Positions 6,666 through 15,782 of a DNA stretch of 15,782 nucleotides are shown here, piece after piece. The stretch comes from a virus. Made by a program: the position numbers and the translations under genes. The notes beneath the pieces are model-generated. The model had not been told where the DNA came from and did not search any database. It saw only the letters and a list, made by a program, of their open reading frames with translations. The stretch lies in the UHGV virus genome UHGV-0147861. The stretch is one strand, 5' to 3'. Numbering within the stretch: position 1 is the stretch's first letter; the number at the start of each line of letters is the position of its first letter.

Positions 6666-7859
6666 GTGACCTGGGACGATCACAAGAAGAATTTTGCTCG
6701 CCTGGCGCGAGATGGTGGTTACACCATCGCACAGTATGCCGCCGAGTTTAATCTTAACCCTAATACTGCACGTCGTTATCTCCGTGCCTTCAAAGAAGAC
6801 ACCAGGACAGCGGACAGCCGCAAGCCAAATAAGCCAGTCAGGAAGCCACTAAAAAGCATGATCATTGATCACTCTAATGATCAACATGCAGGTGATCACA
6901 TTGCGGCTGAAATAGCGGAAAAACAAAGGGTTAATGCCGTTGTCAGTGCCGCAGTCGAGAACGCTAAGCGCCAAAATAAGCGCATAAATGATCGTTCTGA
7001 TGATCATGACGTGATCATCCGCGCCCACCGTACCTTACGTGATCGCCTGGAACGCGACACCCTGGATGATGATGGTGAACGCTTTGAATTCGAAGCTGGC
7101 GATTACCTGATAGATAACGTTGAAGCGCGGAAGGCCGCGCGCGCTATGTTGCGTCGGTCCGGGGCCGATGTTCTGGAAACCACTCTTCTGGAAAAGTCTC
7201 TTTCTCATCTCCTTATGCTGGAGAACGCCAGGGATACGTGTATTCGCCTGGTGCAGGAAATGCGCGATCAGCAAAAAGACGATGATGAAGGTACTCCGCC
7301 TGAATACCGTATCGCGAGCATGCTAAACAGCTGTTCCGCGCAGATAAGCAGCCTGATCAACACCATTTACAGCATCCGGAATAACTATCGAAAAGAAAGC
7401 CGGGAGGCGGAAAAGCACGCTTTGTCTATGGGGCAAGCTGGCATTGTTAAGCTGGCATACGAACGAAAGCGTGAAAATAACTGGTCAGTGCTGGAAGCAG
7501 CTGAATTCATCGAGGCGCATGGCGGGAAAGTGCCGCCCCTGATGCTGGAGCAAATCAAAGCCGATCTGCGTGCTCCTAAGACCAATACCGATGATGAGGA
7601 AAGGCAAACTGCCGTCGGTGGCCCTTCTCTTGAAGATCTGGACAAAGTTGCGCGAGAACGGGCCGCCAACCGCCGCGCCGATGCCGCATTGTGGATTGAG
7701 CAACGTAGGGAAGAAATCGCCGATATCGTTGATACAGGCGGTTATGGAGATGTTGATACTGAAGGTGTATCAAACGACCCATGGCTGGAACAAGACCTGG
7801 ACGAAGACGAGGAGGAAGACGAAGAAGTTACCCGCAAGCTATACGGGGATGATGATTAA
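6666..7859 (+). CDS. pacA: Terminase small/pac-recognition subunit PacA
   Basis: 397-aa ORF with GTG start and AGGAAG RBS; contains the pac hexamer arrays in its 5' third; acidic [10 protein letters not shown]-terminus; directly followed by pacB with a 1-nt overlap. Confidence 0.85.
6859..7017. other. pac packaging site: two arrays of TGATC(A/G) hexamers
   Basis: Four TGATCA copies at 6859-6864, 6866-6871, 6878-6883, 6893-6898 and three TGATC(A/G) copies at 6989-6994, 7001-7006, 7012-7017, about 90 bp apart; each contains a Dam GATC site. Matches the described P1 pac architecture. Confidence 0.8.
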
Positions 7860-9343
7860 TGGCCAGAAGTTGCGTAACGGATCCACGTTGGCGCGAGCTG
7901 GTGGCGCTATATCGTTATGACTGGATTGCGGCCGCTGATGTTTTGTTCGGCAAAACACCTACCTGGCAGCAGGATCTGATTATTGAGTCTGTGCAGGAAC
8001 AGGGTAGCAAGACATCTGTTTCGTCTGGTCACGGTACCGGGAAATCAGACATGACTTCTATCATGATCATGTTGTTCATAATCATGTATCCCGGTGCCCG
8101 CGCCATTATCGTTGCGAACAAAATTCAGCAGGTAATGACCGGTATATTCAAGTACATCAAGATAAACTGGGCTACTGCCACCAGCCGTTTTCCATGGCTT
8201 GCTGATTATTTTGTTCTGACAGAAACCGCTTTCTATGAGGTTACTGGTAAAGGTGTATGGACTGTAGTACCGAAGGGCTTTCGTCTGGGAAGTGAAGAAG
8301 CTCTCGCCGGTGAACACGCAGATCATCTTCTGTATATTATCGATGAAGCCTCCGGTGTCAGTGATAGAGCTTTCGGTATCATCACCGGTGCTCTTACCGG
8401 ACAGGATAACCGCATCTTATTACTGTCACAGCCTACACGCCCAAGCGGCTATTTCTACGATACTCACCATAAACTGGCCAAGCGTCCTGGTAACCCAGAT
8501 GGCGTTTATACGGCGATCACGCTTAACAGTGAGGAATCACCGCTGGTAACGCCAGAATTTATCAAAATGAAGCTGGCGGAGTACGGCGGGCGTGATAACC
8601 CTATGTACATGATTAAGGTACGCGGGCTATTCCCTAAATCACAGGACGGCTTCCTTCTTGGACGTGATGAGGTTGAACGTGCGACGCGGCGGAAAGTCAA
8701 GATTGCCAAAGGATGGGGCTGGCTTGCATGTGTGGACGTTGCTGGTGGTACAGGACGGGATAAGTCCGTTATCAATATCATGATGGTGTCCGGCCAGCGA
8801 AATAAACGCCGTGTAATCAACTATCGAATGCTGGAATACACAGACGTTACAGAAACGCAGCTTGCCGCCAAAATTTTCGCAGAATGTAATCCTGAGCGAT
8901 TCCCCAATATCACCATAGCGATAGACGGCGATGGCCTGGGTAAAGCAACGGCGGATCTGATGTACGAGTATTATGGTATTACCGTACAGCGTATACGCTG
9001 GGGTAAAAAGATGCATAGCCGTGAAGATAAGAGCCTGTACTTTGATAAACGTGCTTATGCCAATGTTCAAGCCGCAGAGGCCGTAAAATCTGGTCGTATG
9101 AGACTGGATAAGGGTAATGAAACTATTGAGGAAGCGTCGAAAATCCCTGTAGGGATTAACTCCGCAGGTCAATGGAAGGTGATGAGTAAGGAGGATATGA
9201 AGAAAAAACTCAACCTGCACTCACCAGACCATTGGGATACATATTGTTTCGCTATGCTGGCGGATTATGTTCCCCAGGATGAAGTGCTTAGCGTCGAAGA
9301 CGAAGCGCAGGTTGATGAAGCTCTGGCATGGCTTAATGAATGA
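7859..9343 (+). CDS. pacB: Terminase large subunit PacB
   Basis: 494-aa ORF; Walker A-like GHGTGKS near the N-terminus, Walker B-like [11 protein letters not shown]-terminal nuclease-like region; start overlaps the pacA stop. Confidence 0.9.
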
Positions 9344-9346
9344 ATA

Positions 9347-9363
9347 TTTGCTCTAATAAATTG
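9347..9363 (+). promoter_or_regulatory. C1 operator-like site upstream of the immI module
   Basis: TTTGCTCTAATAAATTG matches 15/17 of the C1 operator consensus; located 4 nt after the pacB stop and upstream of the c4/icd/ant region. Confidence 0.5.
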
Positions 9364-9495
9364 TGTTTTTTAGCTACCGATGCTACATTGAACCTGACCT
9401 CTTGCGCCTTGTGGCATTTTCGGTTTATGCTTATCAGGCACCTCATTAAAACGGGTGCCGGGATTGAGACCCCGGATAATGCAAAAGGCGACACA

Positions 9496-9517
9496 GACGC
9501 CAAAAGCGTCTTTTTTT
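9496..9517 (+). terminator. Possible intrinsic terminator or attenuator hairpin
   Basis: GACGC-CAAAA-GCGTC hairpin (9496-9510) followed by a run of seven T (9511-9517); the stem is short, so strength is uncertain. Confidence 0.35.
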
Positions 9518-9554
9518 GTGTCATGCCATCGCACAGCCATACGTAGCGTTTAGC

Positions 9555-9650
9555 TCAGAGATCAATGGTAGTGCTGGCTGGGCTGCCGAAAGGCAGGCCG
9601 GTTCCCTTTTGCGCCGGTAGTCTCAACCCAGTCAGTGCTACCGCCATTGA
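9555..9650 (+). ncRNA. c4: c4-like antisense RNA (immI repressor RNA), boundaries approximate
   Basis: Structured region with a GNRA-capped hairpin (CUGCC-GAAA-GGCAG, 9583-9596) and a long G-U-containing stem. Two elements are complementary to the downstream leader: 9636-9643 GCUACCGC pairs with 9665-9672 GCGGUAGC, and 9563-9571 CAAUGGUAG pairs with 9695-9703 CUGCCAUUG, bracketing the icd RBS and start codon. Confidence 0.5.
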
Positions 9651-9702
9651 GATTGAGACCTCACGCGGTAGCTCCTTAAATTAGCAAAAGGAGGCTGCCA
9701 TT

Positions 9703-9924
9703 GTGGCTACTATCCCTACCCCTGCTCATCCTGAATTTATCTGGCGCTTTTACTCCTGCCAAAAACGTCACTATCACTTCGTTATTGCACCGACAGAAGA
9801 TGAGGCACGTTCTCAGCTTCCTGACGCCCCATGTATTTTCTCTGCCCGTTTTTCCACTGATTCACACAATTCTCTCAGTTACTGGTGCCTCCCTGTTAAC
9901 GCTTCTGCTCTGGAGGGGCTATGA
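9703..9924 (+). CDS. icd: Icd-like small protein (73 aa), translationally coupled to ant
   Basis: GTG 9703 preceded by AAAGGAGG at 9687-9694; stop overlaps the ant ATG (ATGA, 9921-9924); size and position match the P1 icd gene as I recall it. The protein sequence itself is not recognised. Confidence 0.55.
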   Translation: MATIPTPAHPEFIWRFYSCQKRHYHFVIAPTEDEARSQLPDAPCIFSARFSTDSHNSLSYWCLPVNASALEGL

Positions 9925-11036
9925 GAACATCATTAGTCACCCGTAAAGAAATGATCGAGGCAATTGAACAGCACACTGCCTGTATCAGTACCAGGGATAT
10001 ACCTGGCGTTATTGCCAACTACTTCATGATCACCAAACAACTTTACCGGAGAAAGGACAAAAACGCGGTTCACCGCATTCTGCTAACCGATATCCGTGAA
10101 TACCTGCTCGAACAGGGTCATCTGAATTACGCAACCGTCGCAGCCGAAGCACGCAAGGAGGCACACAGAATGAAAGCAACTAACGTTAAATCAGAAAAAA
10201 CTCATGCACCTTCAGTTCAGGAATCGGAGCTGGTGGTTGTTCAGAATCAGTCTGATGAAATTCCCGTTCTGGAATGGCTGGGAGTGCGTGTAGTGACAAC
10301 TAAGATCCTTGCTAAGGGGTATGGGACAGATGCGGATAACATCAAGAAGAACTTTTCCCGTAATGCTGAACGTTTTTGTGAAGGCAAGCATTTCTATAAA
10401 GTTATTGGAGATGATTTGAACAATTTGCGGGTGACTTTAAGTAACTCACAAAATCCTATCTCTCCTAAAGCCCGCTCACTCATCCTCTGGACGGAACGCG
10501 GCGCAGCCCGCCACGCTAAAATGATCGAAACCGATCAGGCATGGGCATTCTTTGAAAAACTGGAAGACAGCTACTTCCGACAAAAAGAACAGCAACCGAT
10601 CGCAATCCCCCAGACGCTTCCAGAAGCTCTGCGCCTTGCTGCCGAACTGGCTGAACAAAAGCAACTTCTGGAACAGAAAGCCCATCAGCTAAATCAGCAG
10701 CTGGTGGCCGCAGCCCCCAAAGTCGATTTTGCCGACCGGGTATCAGTGGCTAAGGGGATCCTGATTGGGAATTTTGCAAAGGTCGTTGGACTTAAACAAA
10801 ATGCGCTGTTTGCCTGGTTACGGGAGAACGGCATTCTGATAGCGTCCGGCGGCCGTAAAAATGTACCGTTCCAGCAGTACATAAACGCCGGATATTTCAC
10901 AGTGAAAGAAGTGGTGCTGGATGATGAAGAGGGCTACCAGATACGGCTGACGCCCCAATTAACGGGGAAAGGCCAACAGTGGTTGACGCGTAAACTGCTC
11001 GATGCTGGCTTGTTAAAACCGGTGGCGGCTGAATAA
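9921..11036 (+). CDS. ant: Antirepressor Ant (Ant1; in-frame internal start at 10170 gives Ant2)
   Basis: 371-aa ORF with phage antirepressor-type N- and C-terminal regions (C-terminal KilA-C/ANT-like segment PKVDFADRVSVAKGILIGNFAKVVGLKQNALFAWLRENGIL). Internal ATG 10170 has AAGGAGG at 10155-10161 and would give a 288-aa product; the size ratio matches P1 Ant1/Ant2 (about 42/32 kDa). Confidence 0.8.
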   Translation: MRTSLVTRKEMIEAIEQHTACISTRDIPGVIANYFMITKQLYRRKDKNAVHRILLTDIREYLLEQGHLNYATVAAEARKEAHRMKATNVKSEKTHAPSVQESELVVVQNQSDEIPVLEWLGVRVVTTKILAKGYGTDADNIKKNFSRNAERFCEGKHFYKVIGDDLNNLRVTLSNSQNPISPKARSLILWTERGAARHAKMIETDQAWAFFEKLEDSYFRQKEQQPIAIPQTLPEALRLAAELAEQKQLLEQKAHQLNQQLVAAAPKVDFADRVSVAKGILIGNFAKVVGLKQNALFAWLRENGILIASGGRKNVPFQQYINAGYFTVKEVVLDDEEGYQIRLTPQLTGKGQQWLTRKLLDAGLLKPVAAE

Positions 11037-11068
11037 TGGAAGAATGCCCGGTTGATGCCGGGCATAAT

Positions 11069-11920
11069 TTATTGCGCGCTTTCGGGGTTGTCGTTTACTG
11101 GCTGCCCCTTCTTGGTTTTACGGCTGCGCGTAACTGATGCGGCTGACTTAACCTTTTTCTCTTCGCGAGTGATGGCAATTTGTTTTTTTACATTTTCAAT
11201 ATCTGCCAGGCGATATATTTTTGCTTGTGGCCAGCGGTCGCAGATGATCGGTTCTATGGAGTCATAAAGGCTAAATTTTGCTTTTTCGAATTCACCGTTG
11301 ATGATGATTCCATCACGGAGAGTTTCATCGCAGATAAACACGCCACACAGCGGTACATGGTAACTAACTGATTTACCATCATTGTAGTTAGGGCTACTGG
11401 AGATGTAGTGGACGCGCAGCATTGTTTCGCTAAAGCCGTGTACGCGCATACGGAATTTTTCATCCTCCGGGTACTGCTTCATTAGCTCTTTTGTTGCTTC
11501 CAGGTTCTCTATGTATTTCGCACTGTGCTCATTGATCCCCGCGCTTTTTTGGATGCGAATGTCCTTATCAATCAGATGAATAATGCGGCCAGCGGTCATG
11601 TTGACGCTGTTCACAGCTTCTGTCTGATAAGTTGTAACCTTGCGCACACCGCGAAGGATGTTAGGCACTGGATATAAAATAGTCTTTGGGATATTGAGGT
11701 CTGGGTACTGTTCCAGTTCCCGCGCCATTAAAGTCCATTTATCAATTTCAGCCTGAATGCTGTCAGTTTCTTTGAACGGTAGAACGACAACCGGGCGTAC
11801 AGGACGACCGTCGCTGGCTGTATCAACGTGTTGGGCGCGTGCAACAGCTTTTTTTAGAAAGAGATCCCTGAAGCTGACGAACTCCTGGTACAGTTGTTCG
11901 CCGTAGACATAATTTATCAT
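11069..11920 (-). CDS. c1: Primary immunity repressor C1
   Basis: 283-aa protein MINYVYGEQLYQEFVSFRDLFLKKAVARAQHVD... matches my memory of P1 C1 in sequence and length; strong RBS GGAGGAGGATCA before the ATG (minus strand). Confidence 0.93.
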   Translation of the reverse strand: MINYVYGEQLYQEFVSFRDLFLKKAVARAQHVDTASDGRPVRPVVVLPFKETDSIQAEIDKWTLMARELEQYPDLNIPKTILYPVPNILRGVRKVTTYQTEAVNSVNMTAGRIIHLIDKDIRIQKSAGINEHSAKYIENLEATKELMKQYPEDEKFRMRVHGFSETMLRVHYISSSPNYNDGKSVSYHVPLCGVFICDETLRDGIIINGEFEKAKFSLYDSIEPIICDRWPQAKIYRLADIENVKKQIAITREEKKVKSAASVTRSRKTKKGQPVNDNPESAQ

Positions 11921-12014
11921 TGATCCTCCTCCAGAATTGACATGGTCAATAACGCCCGGCTGAGAAAACCGGTCATTACTGACCTATATTATAGAGGGAT
12001 CAAACAAAAATAAT

Positions 12015-12031
12015 AGATTTATTAGTGCATT
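12015..12031 (-). promoter_or_regulatory. C1 operator-like site between coi and c1
   Basis: Plus-strand AGATTTATTAGTGCATT is the reverse complement of a 14/17 match to the C1 operator consensus; located at the coi 3' end upstream of c1. Confidence 0.4.
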
Positions 12032-12240
12032 TATTGTGAGTCTAACTGGTTAGTTGCCATGAGATATTCGATTGTGTCAGTGAGGTCATCCAGGTCGTCT
12101 TGGGTGATGCGGTACTCCTGATTGGATATCTTTGAGTAGTGTTCAGCAATGGCGCGGGCAGCGTCGGTTTCGGCAGGGTCTACAGATAAAGCGTTAGAGC
12201 AATGTCTAACGTCGTCGATGGTTGGTTGAATGAAAGCCAT
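12031..12240 (-). CDS. coi: C1 inactivator Coi
   Basis: 69-aa acidic protein MAFIQPTIDDVRHCSNALSVDPAETDAARAIAEHYSK... directly upstream of and co-oriented with c1; size and position match P1 Coi. Confidence 0.85.
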   Translation of the reverse strand: MAFIQPTIDDVRHCSNALSVDPAETDAARAIAEHYSKISNQEYRITQDDLDDLTDTIEYLMATNQLDSQ

Positions 12241-12478
12241 AATTATGCCTCACTGTATTGACAACACAGAGCCTGAAGCTCTGACCTACTGTTTCACCCA
12301 TGATCCATGCTGGGGTAATCTAACAACATTGCGCTGTGTGTAAGATGAGCAATGCATAGCTGTAATGCCGTTGTATAAGGTTTCCCTGTTTGCTCATTTC
12401 CTTCTGAGCCGCTCTACAACGCTGAAGACACATTAAATAGTGAATCCAAAGTCGTATTACGTAACGGCGGCAAAACTA

Positions 12479-12495
12479 TAATTTATTAGAGCAAT
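12479..12495 (-). promoter_or_regulatory. C1 operator (immC), 16/17 match
   Basis: Plus-strand TAATTTATTAGAGCAAT is the reverse complement of ATTGCTCTAATAAATTA, 16/17 to the consensus; upstream of coi. Confidence 0.55.
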
Positions 12496-12561
12496 TGTCA
12501 AACAACTATGAAAAACAATCCAGTTTTTAGCTGGTGGAGTGGGATTTTTCTCTCAAAATTT

Positions 12562-12578
12562 ATTGCTCTAATAATTAT
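12562..12578 (+). promoter_or_regulatory. C1 operator-like site (immC), 15/17 match
   Basis: ATTGCTCTAATAATTAT, 15/17 to the consensus, about 35 bp from the transposon terminus. Confidence 0.5.
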
Positions 12579-12613
12579 TGATTTTTGTGCGCAGCTGGAC
12601 GTAAACTCCTCTT

Positions 12614-12651
12614 GGGGGAACCGCAGAATTCGGAAAAAATCGTACGCTAAG
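12614..12651. repeat. 38-bp terminal inverted repeat of a Tn3-family (Tn1721/Tn21-group) transposon
   Basis: GGGGGAACCGCAGAATTCGGAAAAAATCGTACGCTAAG begins with GGGG and ends ...ACGCTAAG, the hallmark of Tn21/Tn1721-group IRs, and is close to the Tn1721 IR as I remember it. It is immediately flanked on the left by AT-rich P1-like DNA. Confidence 0.85.
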
Positions 12652-12802
12652 CTAACGGTGTTCTCGTGACAGCTCTTTGACTAGGCTTTCTAAGGCCATT
12701 CTGATAGCCCTGACTTCCTGAAAAGCCATGGCTAAAATTTGTGCGGCTAAAAGGGATAACCGATGGTAAAGTAAGTTATCCCTGTCGAGATACTGAAAAG
12801 CG

Positions 12803-14380
12803 TTATCCTCGTTTTTCCCAAAACTGTTTTGCCAGTTCGCTCAGAGCGCTAGTTAACTGAGCGACAGATTTCGCACTTTGCAAATTATTCTGCCCGGTCT
12901 GTACATTGGTATCAGCAGCATCGCGTATATTGATAATACTGCGGTTTATGTCTTCACTTACTGCTCCCTGCTGCTCGACCGCAGTCGCTATTTGCGCGTT
13001 CATGTCGGTAATTTCGTTAACGCGTTGGCCAATTCCATCAAGAGCTGTAGCTGCTTCCTCTGCGTGAGCTACACTCGTGTGCGCTTGCCGACTACTTTGC
13101 TCCATGACTGTAACAGCGGATTGCGCTCGCTCTTGTAGAGCGCTGATCATGCTTTGAATATCCGTTGTCGATTGCTGTGTGCGAGCAGCAAGACTGCGAA
13201 CCTCATCGGCGACAACAGCAAAACCACGCCCCTGCTCACCAGCACGCGCGGCCTCAATTGCTGCGTTGAGTGCCAACAAATTCGTTTGCTCGGCGATCCC
13301 TCGTATAACGTCAAGAACTTTTGATATCTCGTTACTTTGACCTTCAAGCTCATGAATAACCTGAGTGGCTTGCCTAATTTCACCTTCAAGGGCAGTGATT
13401 GACTGGCTTGTGTGGGCTACCAGACGCTGGCCAGATGCCGTCTCAGTGTCTGCTCTTCCGGCCGCATCTGCAGCATGCTGTGCATTGCTCGCAACCTCTT
13501 GAATGCTTGCCACCATTTGGTTTACTGCCGTTGCTATTTGATCTGTCTCTGCCTGCTGCTCAACTGTAAGTACATTGCTTGACTCAATATCCTTTAGTAG
13601 GCCTCGGGTGTGTTCGCTAAGCCGATTTGATGCATCACCTATGCGACCTACTATGGCGCCTGTTTCAGCTTGCATCATTCGTAAAGCAAACTCTATTTGG
13701 CCAAACTCATCGGTGCGCCCAGTGTAGAGGGATTGACTTAATGGGTTATTGGAAATATTCCTGGCTCTTTCAACCAGTCTTCCAAGAGGAGAGAGAATAG
13801 CCAAAACACTAACAGAGCTTAAGCTTCCTGACATTAAAGTGGCTAACAATAAGCTGCTTATTGATGTATCAGTAAGCATGCCGGCAGCCATTGCGCTTGA
13901 TATAATACTACCCCATATGAGCAAGAGTATTTTCACGGAAAAGCTAGCAGCCAATTTCGGCCTCGCGGCCTTCCCGCTTCTCAATTGAGCATATAATTTT
14001 TCCGCAGCCAAAACCTGCTCAGGTTCAGGCTTGGTCCTTACAGACTGGTATTCAACAATCGAACCATTCTTAGCTATTGGCGTTACATAAGCACTTACCC
14101 AATAGTGGTCGCCATTTTTACAGCGATTTTTTACTAGCCCCATCCATGAGCGGCCAGATTTTAATGTACTCCACATATGCTCAAATGCAGCAGGCGGCAT
14201 ATCTGGGTGTCTTACGATGTTGTGAGGCTGGCCTAATAGTTCTTCCTCAGTGAAACCACTGATTTTAATGAAGTCAGGATTAACGTACGTGATATGGCTT
14301 TGAGGGGAGGTAGTCGAAAGAATATTGGCATCTTTTGGGAGTTCTAAGTTTCGACCCGTCACTGGTAAATTCTGGCGCAT
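12803..14380 (-). CDS. Methyl-accepting chemotaxis protein, Aer-like (PAS + HAMP + MCP signalling domain)
   Basis: N-terminal PAS-like region ([31 protein letters not shown]), hydrophobic segments, and the highly conserved MCP signalling motif [42 protein letters not shown]; corresponds to the orfI chemoreceptor-like gene of Tn1721. Confidence 0.9.
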
Positions 14381-14519
14381 AAGAACCTCAAGGGTTGGCT
14401 GTTTTATTTTATTGTTTTCGGCATTAAGCCCAATTTCTTGAGCGTTACGATAAAGCTAGCATGGAAACGATAGGTGCAAGCAAGTTAAGGGTTGCATCGC
14501 GCATGTCAATCTAGGCTAT

Positions 14520-14689
14520 ACCCTAACTTGATGTCAGGCAGGGCCGCGCCGCTTCGTCAGAATAGAGTCTGCTTTCCCATTTTTTGACACATGCCCGCGA
14601 AGGTTATAGATTTCAGCCTGACAGAAATGGGCTTTGAGGCACAACGGAACAGAAAGTGCACTTAAGCCGCCTTCAACCAAGGAGACATC
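14520..14689. promoter_or_regulatory. Putative res (resolution) site region and tnpR/mcp divergent promoter region
   Basis: Intergenic region between divergent mcp and tnpR containing repeated TGTCAG/CTGACA-type half-sites (TGTCAGGC 14532-14539, CGTCAGAA 14555-14562, TTTGACAC 14583-14590, CCTGACAGAA 14617-14626), the position where Tn3-family res sites lie. Subsite boundaries not resolved. Confidence 0.55.
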
Positions 14690-15250
14690 GTGCAGGGGCA
14701 CCGCATCGGCTACGTCCGGGTCAGCAGCTTTGACCAGAACCCGGAACGCCAGCTGGAACAAACCCAGGTGAGCAAGGTGTTCACCGACAAGGCATCGGGC
14801 AAGGACACCCAGCGCCCCCAGCTCGAAGCGCTGCTGAGCTTCGTCCGCGAAGGCGATACAGTGGTGGTGCACAGCATGGATCGGCTGGCCCGCAACCTCG
14901 ATGACCTGCGTCGCTTGGTACAGAAGCTGACTCAGCGCGGCGTGCGCATCGAGTTCCTGAAGGAGGGCCTGGTGTTCACTGGCGAGGACTCGCCGATGGC
15001 CAACCTGATGCTGTCGGTGATGGGGGCCTTCGCTGAGTTCGAGCGCGCCCTGATCCGCGAGCGGCAGCGTGAGGGCATCGCCTTGGCCAAGCAGCGTGGC
15101 GCGTACCGGGGCCGCAAGAAAGCCCTGTCCGATGAGCAGGCTGCTACCCTGCGGCAGCGAGCGACGGCCGGCGAGCCCAAGGCGCAGCTTGCCCGCGAGT
15201 TCAACATCAGCCGGGAAACCCTCTACCAGTACCTCCGCACGGACGACTGA
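14690..15250 (+). CDS. tnpR: Serine recombinase resolvase TnpR
   Basis: 186-aa protein with the resolvase N-terminal catalytic motif GYVRVSSFDQNPERQ and C-terminal HTH; GTG start with AAGGAG RBS at 14679-14684; matches Tn1721-group TnpR. Confidence 0.95.
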   Translation: MQGHRIGYVRVSSFDQNPERQLEQTQVSKVFTDKASGKDTQRPQLEALLSFVREGDTVVVHSMDRLARNLDDLRRLVQKLTQRGVRIEFLKEGLVFTGEDSPMANLMLSVMGAFAEFERALIRERQREGIALAKQRGAYRGRKKALSDEQAATLRQRATAGEPKAQLAREFNISRETLYQYLRTDD

Positions 15251-15253
15251 CAC

Positions 15254-15782
15254 ATGCCGCGTCGCTTGATCCTCTCGGCCACGGAGCGGGACACCCTGCT
15301 TGCGCTGCCGGAAAGCCAGGATGACCTGATCCGCTACTACACCTTCAACGACTCCGACCTGTCGCTGATCCGCCAGCGACGCGGCGACGCCAACCGCCTC
15401 GGCTTCGCCGTGCAGCTCTGCCTGCTGCGCTACCCCGGTTACGCGCTGGGAACCGACAGCGAGCTGCCCGAGCCGGTCATCCTGTGGGTGGCGAAGCAAG
15501 TCCAGGCCGAGCCGGCGAGCTGGGCAAAGTACGGCGAGCGCGACGTGACCCGTCGCGAGCATGCCCAGGAACTGCGCACCTACCTGCAACTGGCCCCGTT
15601 CGGCCTGTCCGACTTCCGCGCCCTGGTGCGCGAGCTAACCGAGCTGGCCCAGCAGACCGACAAAGGCTTGCTGCTGGCCGGTCAGGCCCTGGAGAGCCTA
15701 CGGCAGAAACGACGCATCCTGCCGGCGCTGAGCGTGATTGACCGGGCCTGCTCGGAAGCCATTGCGCGAGCCAATCGGCGGG
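15254..15782 (+). CDS. tnpA: Tn3-family transposase TnpA, N-terminal 176 codons (3' end outside window)
   Basis: ATG 15254 four nt after the tnpR stop; translation [62 protein letters not shown]... matches the conserved N-terminus of Tn21/Tn1721-type TnpA; frame is open to the window end. Confidence 0.9.

Follow-up and report, generated by a model that had tools for sequence, protein, structure and literature searches.

The 15,782-nt stretch of DNA analyzed here (hereafter, the window), from the viral genome UHGV-0147861, is a piece of a P1-like phage-plasmid, and by megablast it matched SJ46, RCS47, JL22, P1, and P7 at 94-98% identity. Between its pacB gene, which encodes terminase B, and its gene for the C1 repressor lies a 1.7-kb segment (9344-11068) that, when the junctions are compared, stands in place of the 24-bp pacB/c1 spacer of reference P1. 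Judged from its sequence, this segment is very probably a complete and self-contained cassette of the type of immI, the secondary immunity region of P1 and P7, with a C1 operator, two P1-like promoters, a leader RNA of the IsrK/a1b1 type, the antisense RNA c4, the genes icd and ant1/ant2, and a terminator hairpin (Table 1). The pacB stop codon (TGA) occupies 9341-9343 and the operator begins 3 bp farther on, while at the opposite end ant is convergent with c1, which is on the minus strand. An immI-type circuit is therefore found at most ~30 bp from the end of c1 and at most ~1.5 kb from the immC operators.

The arrangement in the reference genomes is different. In P1 (NC_005856), pacB ends at 93206 and c1 occupies 93231-94082, leaving a gap of 24 bp, and immI is located at 48140-49731, ~44 kb from pacB/c1, with kilA and repL next to it. 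P7 has the same immI-kilA order as P1 and its immI is also ~44 kb from pacB/c1, and SJ46 has the direct pacB/c1 junction of P1. A first-pass annotation of the window had listed an operator, c4, icd, and ant1/ant2 directly after pacB, convergent with c1 and with no kilA or repL nearby, and had set this against P1, where immI is far from immC and is followed by kilA-repL. We found all of the listed parts where it had placed them, and the P1 and P7 genomes agree with the reference order that it had given. The described surroundings also hold within the window, where searches for the N-terminal part of kilA, repL, sim/simB, and rlfA detected none of them and the only KilA match was the KilAC domain of Ant itself.

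The RNA portion of the cassette begins with the leader, which belongs to the IsrK/c4-a1b1 leader families (RF01394, RF03163), with a covariance-model score above gathering and an intrinsic terminator identified by terminator scan (hairpin at 9495-9511, followed by a T run). The fold of the whole leader gave z=-5.5 against shuffled sequences. For comparison, the leader of P1 scored 51 bits on the c4-a1b1 model RF03163, above gathering, and 35 bits on isrK, below it. The a1 box (TTGAGAC, 9464-9470) lies in a hairpin loop of the leader and b1 (GCAAAAGG) at 9481-9488, and both sequences recur as a2 and b2 ahead of icd, where b2 overlaps the icd Shine-Dalgarno sequence (AAGGAGG, 9688-9694). In the c4 RNA, according to the Rfam structure, b' (CCTTTTGC, 9605-9612) is in the loop of hairpin 2 and a' (GTCTCAA, 9620-9626) is in a single-stranded junction. 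As in immI, a' and b' are exactly complementary, over 7 and 8 nt, to all four target sites a1, b1, a2, and b2.

We counted base pairs on an alignment (A2) of 22 distinct leaders, all from the IsrK-type clade and in register, in which the boxes fall in columns 28-34, 45-52, 172-179, 187-193, 220-226, and 251-258 (window 9464-9691). A joint alignment (A1) of P1-type and IsrK-type leaders was set aside for this purpose because the two clades were out of register in c4. The internal helices of c4 comprise 27 pairs, which were 100% paired across the 22 sequences, and 9 of them showed double changes. Pairing of a' with a2 and of b' with b2 was also 100%, with compensatory double changes at 7 of the 15 pairs, so that together 16 pairs had changed on both sides. 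When the partners were slid by 1-3 columns as a control, only 25-49% of cells were paired. The a1-a' and b1-b' pairings likewise held in 100% of cells, and 8 of these pairs had changed on both sides. Such covariation is a strong comparative argument for selection acting on the antisense circuit.

The recognition sequences are also diverse. Across ~80 related loci there were 13 combinations of a' and b', and a1, b1, a2, and b2 carried matching changes in every one; the pacB/c1 site by itself had five specificity types. There, a' GTCTCAA and a' GTTCCAA each occur with both b' CCTTTTGC and b' CCTTTGAC, so that every one of the four possible pairings exists in spite of the interleaving of the boxes along the DNA (a1 b1 ... 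b' a' a2 b2). One crossover could not generate this pattern, which implies either repeated conversion or independent triple compensatory changes. The c4 RNA of the window has 2+3 mismatches to the P1 targets and 3+5 to those of P7, as against 1+2 between P1 and P7, two phages that are reported to be heteroimmune (PMC6906374; PMC12197685). The canonical c4 of the relatives was always of another type than that of the cassette (P7-type in RCS47, and a further type in plasmid p03_3013-2), and the RCS47 insert differs from the window in b' (0+1 mismatch), and vB_EcoM-673R5 in both a' and b'. Because P1, P7, and the canonical immI loci of relatives use different recognition sequences, their c4 RNAs should not act on the cassette, nor its c4 on them.

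Downstream of the RNA targets, the stop codon of icd and the start codon of ant overlap in ATGA (9921-9924), implying from the sequence that synthesis of Ant1 and Ant2 should depend on translation of icd. The icd homologue is labeled Icd-like protein by PGAP. The offset of the predicted ant2 start (249 nt) is identical to that of the annotated ant2 of P1. At the sequence level, icd is coupled to ant and ant1/ant2 are nested in frame, as is expected of immI. Homology to P1 Ant1 does not extend over the whole length of the protein: residues 1-83 are 64% identical and residues 226-371 (146 aa, KilAC/ANT) are 85% identical, whereas residues 111-225 (18%) form a non-homologous ORF6N domain. In P1 Ant1, Pfam detected the ANT domain only, and ORF6N was not detected.

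Upstream of the leader, the predicted operator matches the consensus ATTGCTCTAATAAATTT at 15 of 17 positions and P1 OrepL at 16 of 17. Three C1-operator sites with no more than 2 mismatches were found in the window, where 0.01 would be expected by chance. The site overlaps the first of the two proposed promoters, so that at the sequence level the upstream promoter carries a predicted C1 operator, as in immI. Both promoters were proposed from positional homology to the annotated promoters of P1 and to D6, a phage that keeps the hexamer spacing of the second promoter (TTGCGC-18-TATATT) despite unrelated upstream DNA. The hairpin between ant and c1 stands in place of a small hairpin in the 24-bp spacer of P1 and is likely the ant terminator, possibly acting in both directions.

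Table 1. Coordinates of the cassette and of the genes beside it (positions in the window).
Feature	Position	Strand	Basis or remark
pacA	6666-7859		Open reading frame (ORF) list; followed by pacB
pacB (terminase B), left neighbor	7859..9343	+	ORF list; agrees with annotated pacB of RCS47 and P1
Predicted C1 operator TTTGCTCTAATAAATTG, equivalent to Oc4/Op51	9347..9363	+	Consensus and OrepL match
Putative C1-repressible promoter, TTGTGT-17 nt-TACATT	9361..9389	+	Position equivalent of P1 P2c4/P51a (TTGTAT-17-TATCTT)
Putative constitutive promoter, TTGCGC-18 nt-TATGCT	9402..9431	+	Functional equivalent of P1 P1c4/P51b; 6 nt before IsrK-type 5' end
IsrK-type leader RNA (a1b1 leader of immI)	9438..9516	+	Rfam isrK RF01394, 59 bits vs gathering 50
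c4 antisense RNA	9561..9648	+	Rfam C4 RF01695, 75 bits vs gathering 45, E=2e-13
c4 target region of icd-ant mRNA	9653..9694	+	a2 TTGAGAC 9653-9659, b2 GCAAAAGG 9684-9691
icd, 73 aa, GTG start	9703..9924	+	ORF list; 78% identical to P1 Icd over residues 10-73
ant1, 371 aa	9921..11036	+	Pfam ORF6N 117-201, ANT 259-360
ant2, 288 aa (predicted start)	10170..11036	+	In-frame ATG at ant1 codon 84; Shine-Dalgarno AAGGAGG 10155-10161
9-bp G+C-rich hairpin between convergent ant and c1	11044..11065	.	Terminator scan
c1 repressor gene, right neighbor	11069..11920	-	281/283 aa identical to P1 C1.100
coi	12031-12240	-	ORF list and megablast

On its sequence, the segment is best named an immI-type cassette of the RCS47 kind. 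Its RNAs, icd, ant1/ant2, and predicted operator are those of immI; its position, between pacB and c1 rather than between sim and kilA-repL, and the interrupted homology of its Ant are not.

The same segment occupies the same site in several known elements, at an identity of 95.5-95.6% in RCS47, 96.5% in pTZ20_1P, 90.5-90.9% in JL22, and 86.6-87.2% in vB_EcoM-673R5 (673R5). Positions 9300-11100 of the window align collinearly and in one piece to RCS47, JL22, and 673R5, and the RCS47-type insertions share with the window both the left junction (pacB stop, ATA, operator) and the right junction (hairpin, c1 stop). Identity of the cassette was highest, at 99.6-99.9%, to the plasmids pE148-2 and p03_3013-2, the latter of which is the closest complete relative that we found (99.9% identical over window 9000-12616). 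In PLSDB, with a positive defined as at least 80% coverage of window 8900-11500, the pacB-cassette-c1 order was present in 270 plasmids and the uninterrupted P1-type junction in 314, so that ~46% of the plasmids that could be scored had the cassette. Of the scored IMG/VR loci encoding a relative of this Ant, 47 of 76 had pacB upstream and c1 downstream, and the string at the pacB-stop/operator junction of the window also occurred in 27 IMG/VR loci. An 'ant' insertion between pacB and c1 had been noted in passing for pTZ20_1P (MN510447), as in RCS47, by Venturini et al. 2019 (PMC6906374). The pacB/c1 layout is already known and is common within the family; it differs from textbook P1 and is not a new rearrangement. 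The first-pass annotation had conceded that the order would be ordinary if reference genomes of the P1 family shared it: P1 and P7 do not, and the RCS47 RefSeq genome, JL22, 673R5, and the PLSDB and IMG/VR loci above do.

Relatives of the cassette were also seen in at least three other sites of P1-like contigs, namely downstream of cre, in convergent orientation (five loci), downstream of ref (four loci), and in the canonical position with kilA-repL (one locus). Several contigs carried two cassettes and one, IMGVR_UViG_2698536372_000019, carried three. Wherever all of the cassettes of a contig could be typed, their c4 types differed.

By its sequence affinities the cassette is a mosaic of a P1-type operator, a leader and c4 of the D6/lambdoid type, and an Ant with an ORF6N center. 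Positions 9344-9393, with the operator and first promoter, are P1-type. Over 9394-9851, which takes in the second promoter, the leader, c4, its targets, and the 5' portion of icd, the cassette shares 86% identity with the second c4-icd region of D6 and has the same recognition sequences. From there through codon 83 of ant the sequence is ~70% identical to P1, and the middle of ant (window 10320-10910) has 71% nucleotide identity to Ant/Roi genes of Stx lambdoid phages. We looked for insertion sequence ends, a target duplication, or convincing flanking repeats in 9150-11250 and found none; a 19-nt (74%) direct match and an 11-nt inverted match in this interval are weak and look like chance. Inspection of the 24-bp spacer of P1 by eye for remnants of the cassette showed no convincing homology. 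In P1, blastn matched window 9343-9372 only to the operator/promoter region of kilA-repL (OrepL/PkilA; 30 bp, 87% identity), a likeness that hints that operator-containing sequences may have been the recombination joint.

In P1, translation of Ant depends on that of icd, a promoter of immI is controlled by C1, and Ant1/Ant2 inactivate C1. By analogy, we propose that the constitutive promoter (~9402-9431) would transcribe the leader, c4, icd, and ant, with many of the transcripts ending at the IsrK-type terminator (9495-9518), and that c4 would be excised from the transcripts that read through. Its a' and b' would pair with a2 and b2, for which complementarity and covariation were observed, and would mask the icd ribosome-binding site and block icd translation; by way of the ATGA overlap, Ant1 and Ant2 would be made only as icd is translated. 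As C1 falls, the promoter overlapped by the C1 operator (9347-9389) would add transcription, perhaps more than c4 could counter, and the Ant so released would, by analogy with P1, bind and inactivate C1. The a1 and b1 boxes of the leader can pair with the same c4 loops and could have either a cis role in folding or processing or a trans role as a decoy. In P1/P7 immI, as has been summarized (PMC12197685), c4 derives from the icd-ant transcript and occludes the icd ribosome-binding site.

With private recognition sequences, the cassette is likely an independently addressed channel for both antirepression and immunity. In a prophage it would provide an additional immunity specificity, and upon infection an additional antirepressor, beyond the reach of a resident P1-type prophage whose c4 types are different.

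Several points weigh against this reading. The parts of the cassette and their complementarity were observed, and its working as an antirepressor and immunity channel is predicted by analogy with P1/P7 immI. Residues 111-225 of Ant are unrelated to P1 Ant1, which makes activity on C1 an extrapolation. A consensus promoter scan flagged neither of the proposed promoters. Compared with that of P1, the terminator in the leader is stronger and closer to the IsrK type, and regulation may follow the IsrK scheme of Gifsy-1 (PMC4825925) rather than that of P1. Finally, the source element was seen over 15.8 kb, and a canonical immI elsewhere on it is expected from its relatives.

The replaced center of Ant is the main source of uncertainty. 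The target of Ant could be C1, to which the retained Ant1 extension, KilAC, and the operator point, or it could be another repressor. We considered it unlikely that the cassette is an antirepressor switch aimed mainly at something other than C1, whether the repressors of, for example, lambdoid prophages resident in the cell or a different target in host or phage, which would make it a weapon between phages and not a part of P1 immunity. The Ant2-equivalent part (ORF6N plus KilAC) does resemble Ant/Roi of Stx lambdoid phages over the middle of the gene described above, and a leader and c4 of IsrK-C4 type also adjoin antirepressor and antiterminator genes in P13771, an Stx phage, and in Gifsy-1 (PMC4825925). 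Against this, the P1-specific N-terminal extension of Ant1 (64%) and the start position of Ant2 have been kept, KilAC is 85% identical to that of P1 Ant1, a predicted C1 operator lies on the upstream promoter, and the cassette is fixed beside c1 in hundreds of P1-like plasmids.

Even less probable, in our view, is that the cassette is a functionless passenger, decaying or tolerated, or an ancestral state that P1 and P7 have lost. Its presence and absence are near 50:50, P1 and P7 are fully functional without it, and the junctions have no transposon ends or target duplication by which the insertion could be dated. However, all of its ORFs are intact, compensatory changes keep the RNA pairs at three sites for each recognition sequence, and five specificity types exist at the one site, which argues for continuing selection and not decay. 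Whether the cassette is ancestral or derived has no bearing on function.

Comparison with complete relatives indicates that the cassette is in all probability a second copy of the immI type, additional to a canonical immI-kilA-repL locus and not relocated from it. RCS47, JL22, and 673R5 each hold the pacB/c1 cassette together with a canonical c4-icd-ant1/2-kilA-repL locus, and p03_3013-2 likewise retains icd-ant-kilA-repL at 21.2-24.3 kb. At least two matching places were found in 13 of the 13 sampled PLSDB plasmids with at least 94% coverage of the cassette query. The first-pass annotation had read the locus as a mosaic rearrangement that brings both immunity circuits together, and relative to P1 and P7 it is indeed a 1.7-kb mosaic insertion that leaves the circuits close to each other. 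That a single immI had moved from the sim/kilA-repL position into the pacB/c1 spacer, a reading that draws on the absence of a detectable kilA N-terminal part, repL, sim, and rlfA from the window with the rest of the element out of view, was rejected as highly improbable because every complete cassette-bearing relative examined holds both loci, and the cassette is 70-81% identical to the canonical immI over half its length, with a leader and c4 of a different lineage.

Outside of the cassette the window follows the P1 backbone, with humD, phd, doc, pdcB, and lpa among the genes to the left of the packaging genes in the ORF list. The backbone ends at 12613, ~35 bp beyond an operator-like site at 12562-12578. 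In the remainder of the window (12614-15782), a Tn1721/TnAs1-type transposon end starts at 12614 with the inverted-repeat-like sequence GGGGGAACCGCAGAATTCGGAAAAAATCGTACGCTAAG. Its genes are one for methyl-accepting chemotaxis, of the PAS/HAMP kind (12803-14380, minus strand), and one for a resolvase (14690-15250, plus strand), and it occupies the position of cra and cre in the relatives. No IMG/VR, phage, or plasmid record was found that matched the whole window, that is, the pacB/c1 cassette together with a Tn1721-type insertion at 12613/12614.

Public annotations mislabel the locus. RCS47 has only ant; JL22 has Roi and hypothetical ORFs, one across the operator and leader and one out of frame over icd; and PGAP places an 'ash family protein' over c4. 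We rejected three of these as genes. The ORF at 9340-9546 (JL22 gp120) overlies the operator and leader, and the 1-nt indels of the 673R5-type leader would break it; the ORF at 9701-9946 (JL22 gp121) is in the wrong frame of icd; and the 39-aa 'ash family protein' coding sequence of PGAP (window 9565-9684) overlies the c4 RNA. Annotation of c4 as an RNA, of its leader, and of the operator is missing from all of the RCS47, JL22, and PGAP records examined. The present analysis has value for annotation, as records reading 'ant', 'Roi', 'hypothetical', or 'ash family protein' miss all three of these elements.

The layout itself matters little, being of the RCS47 type that is found in nearly half of the scoreable P1-like plasmids in PLSDB. 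What we offer as a lead is that the locus is a full second immI addressed by a c4 of its own, and that such addresses are highly diversified; neither point appears in the annotations or in the literature that we found, a scope outside of which falls the original RCS47 paper (Billard-Pomares 2014). We propose, tentatively and as something less than probable, that the number of immI-type cassettes in P1-like phage-plasmids may vary from one to at least three, spread over several fixed positions (the canonical one, pacB/c1, and the regions downstream of cre and of ref). Every cassette would have a separate c4 address from a combinatorial repertoire of no fewer than 5 a' and 8 b' sequences, each of them kept matched at three places by compensatory change. 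This would amount to a diversifying, RNA-coded system of immunity and anti-immunity, with pacB/c1 as a hot spot and IsrK small RNAs as its a1b1 decoy or leader. If true, the system would determine which members of the P1-like elements could enter, live alongside, or induce others. P1-like phage-plasmids are important carriers of resistance genes, and cassettes that work as predicted would govern their superinfection immunity, co-residence, and cross-induction, with a heteroimmunity far more diverse than the P1/P7 pair.

Of the known systems, immI of P1 and P7 is like the cassette in the order of its parts, the C1 operator on the upstream promoter, the RF01695 fold of c4, a pair of target boxes on either side of c4, of which b2 lies on the ribosome-binding site of icd, a 73-aa Icd, ATGA coupling, and the Ant2 start at codon 84. 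The cassette differs from it in its pacB/c1 site in place of sim/kilA-repL, the lack of kilA-repL downstream, its other recognition sequences, and its leader, which is IsrK-type, ends in a strong terminator, and is separated from c4 by ~20 additional nt. At the DNA level the two are 70-81% identical over about half of the cassette, and the center of Ant has been swapped for ORF6N. RCS47 (FO818745/NC_042128), pTZ20_1P, JL22, vB_EcoM-673R5, and many PLSDB plasmids have the site, junctions, and gene order of the window.

Phage D6 and D6-like plasmids (MF356679, 75.0-75.5 kb) have a second c4-icd region with identical a' and b'. Unlike the cassette, D6 has no P1-type C1 operator upstream of this region, and the gene downstream is of the Rha family and unrelated to the Ant described here. 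A weak third C4-like match (40 bits, below gathering; locus L006, 3616-3695) lies upstream of the second c4-icd region of D6. In the Stx phage P13771, a C4 RNA follows isrK by 25 nt (locus L090, 1500-1687), and this IsrK-C4 pair is beside antirepressor and antiterminator genes. The same phage has a strong sRNA-Xcc1 match (RF02221, 80 bits; L090, 2523-2606) inside the ORF annotated as 'antB2', just upstream of the antiterminator gene.

The isrK-orf45-anrP region of Gifsy-1 resembles the cassette in having a leader of the isrK family and a short ORF coupled (AUGA) to an antirepressor gene. The cassette differs in that a full c4 lies between its leader and icd and a P1 C1 operator is present. According to the model published for Gifsy-1, short IsrK, which binds Hfq, acts in trans to activate translation. 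The model does without a c4 RNA, and P1, icd, and c4 are not mentioned in that paper (PMC4825925). IsrK RNA as found in Gifsy-1 and the a1b1 leader of immI seem to be one and the same, because the leader of the window carries a1 and b1 boxes, the leader of P1 is a weak isrK match, and in P13771 isrK is followed by C4. By the same comparison, the nucleotide-conserved 'orf45' of Gifsy-1, with its ~80-nt processed RNA (STnc1160), may be a c4 homologue, and activation by IsrK may be the titration of that RNA.

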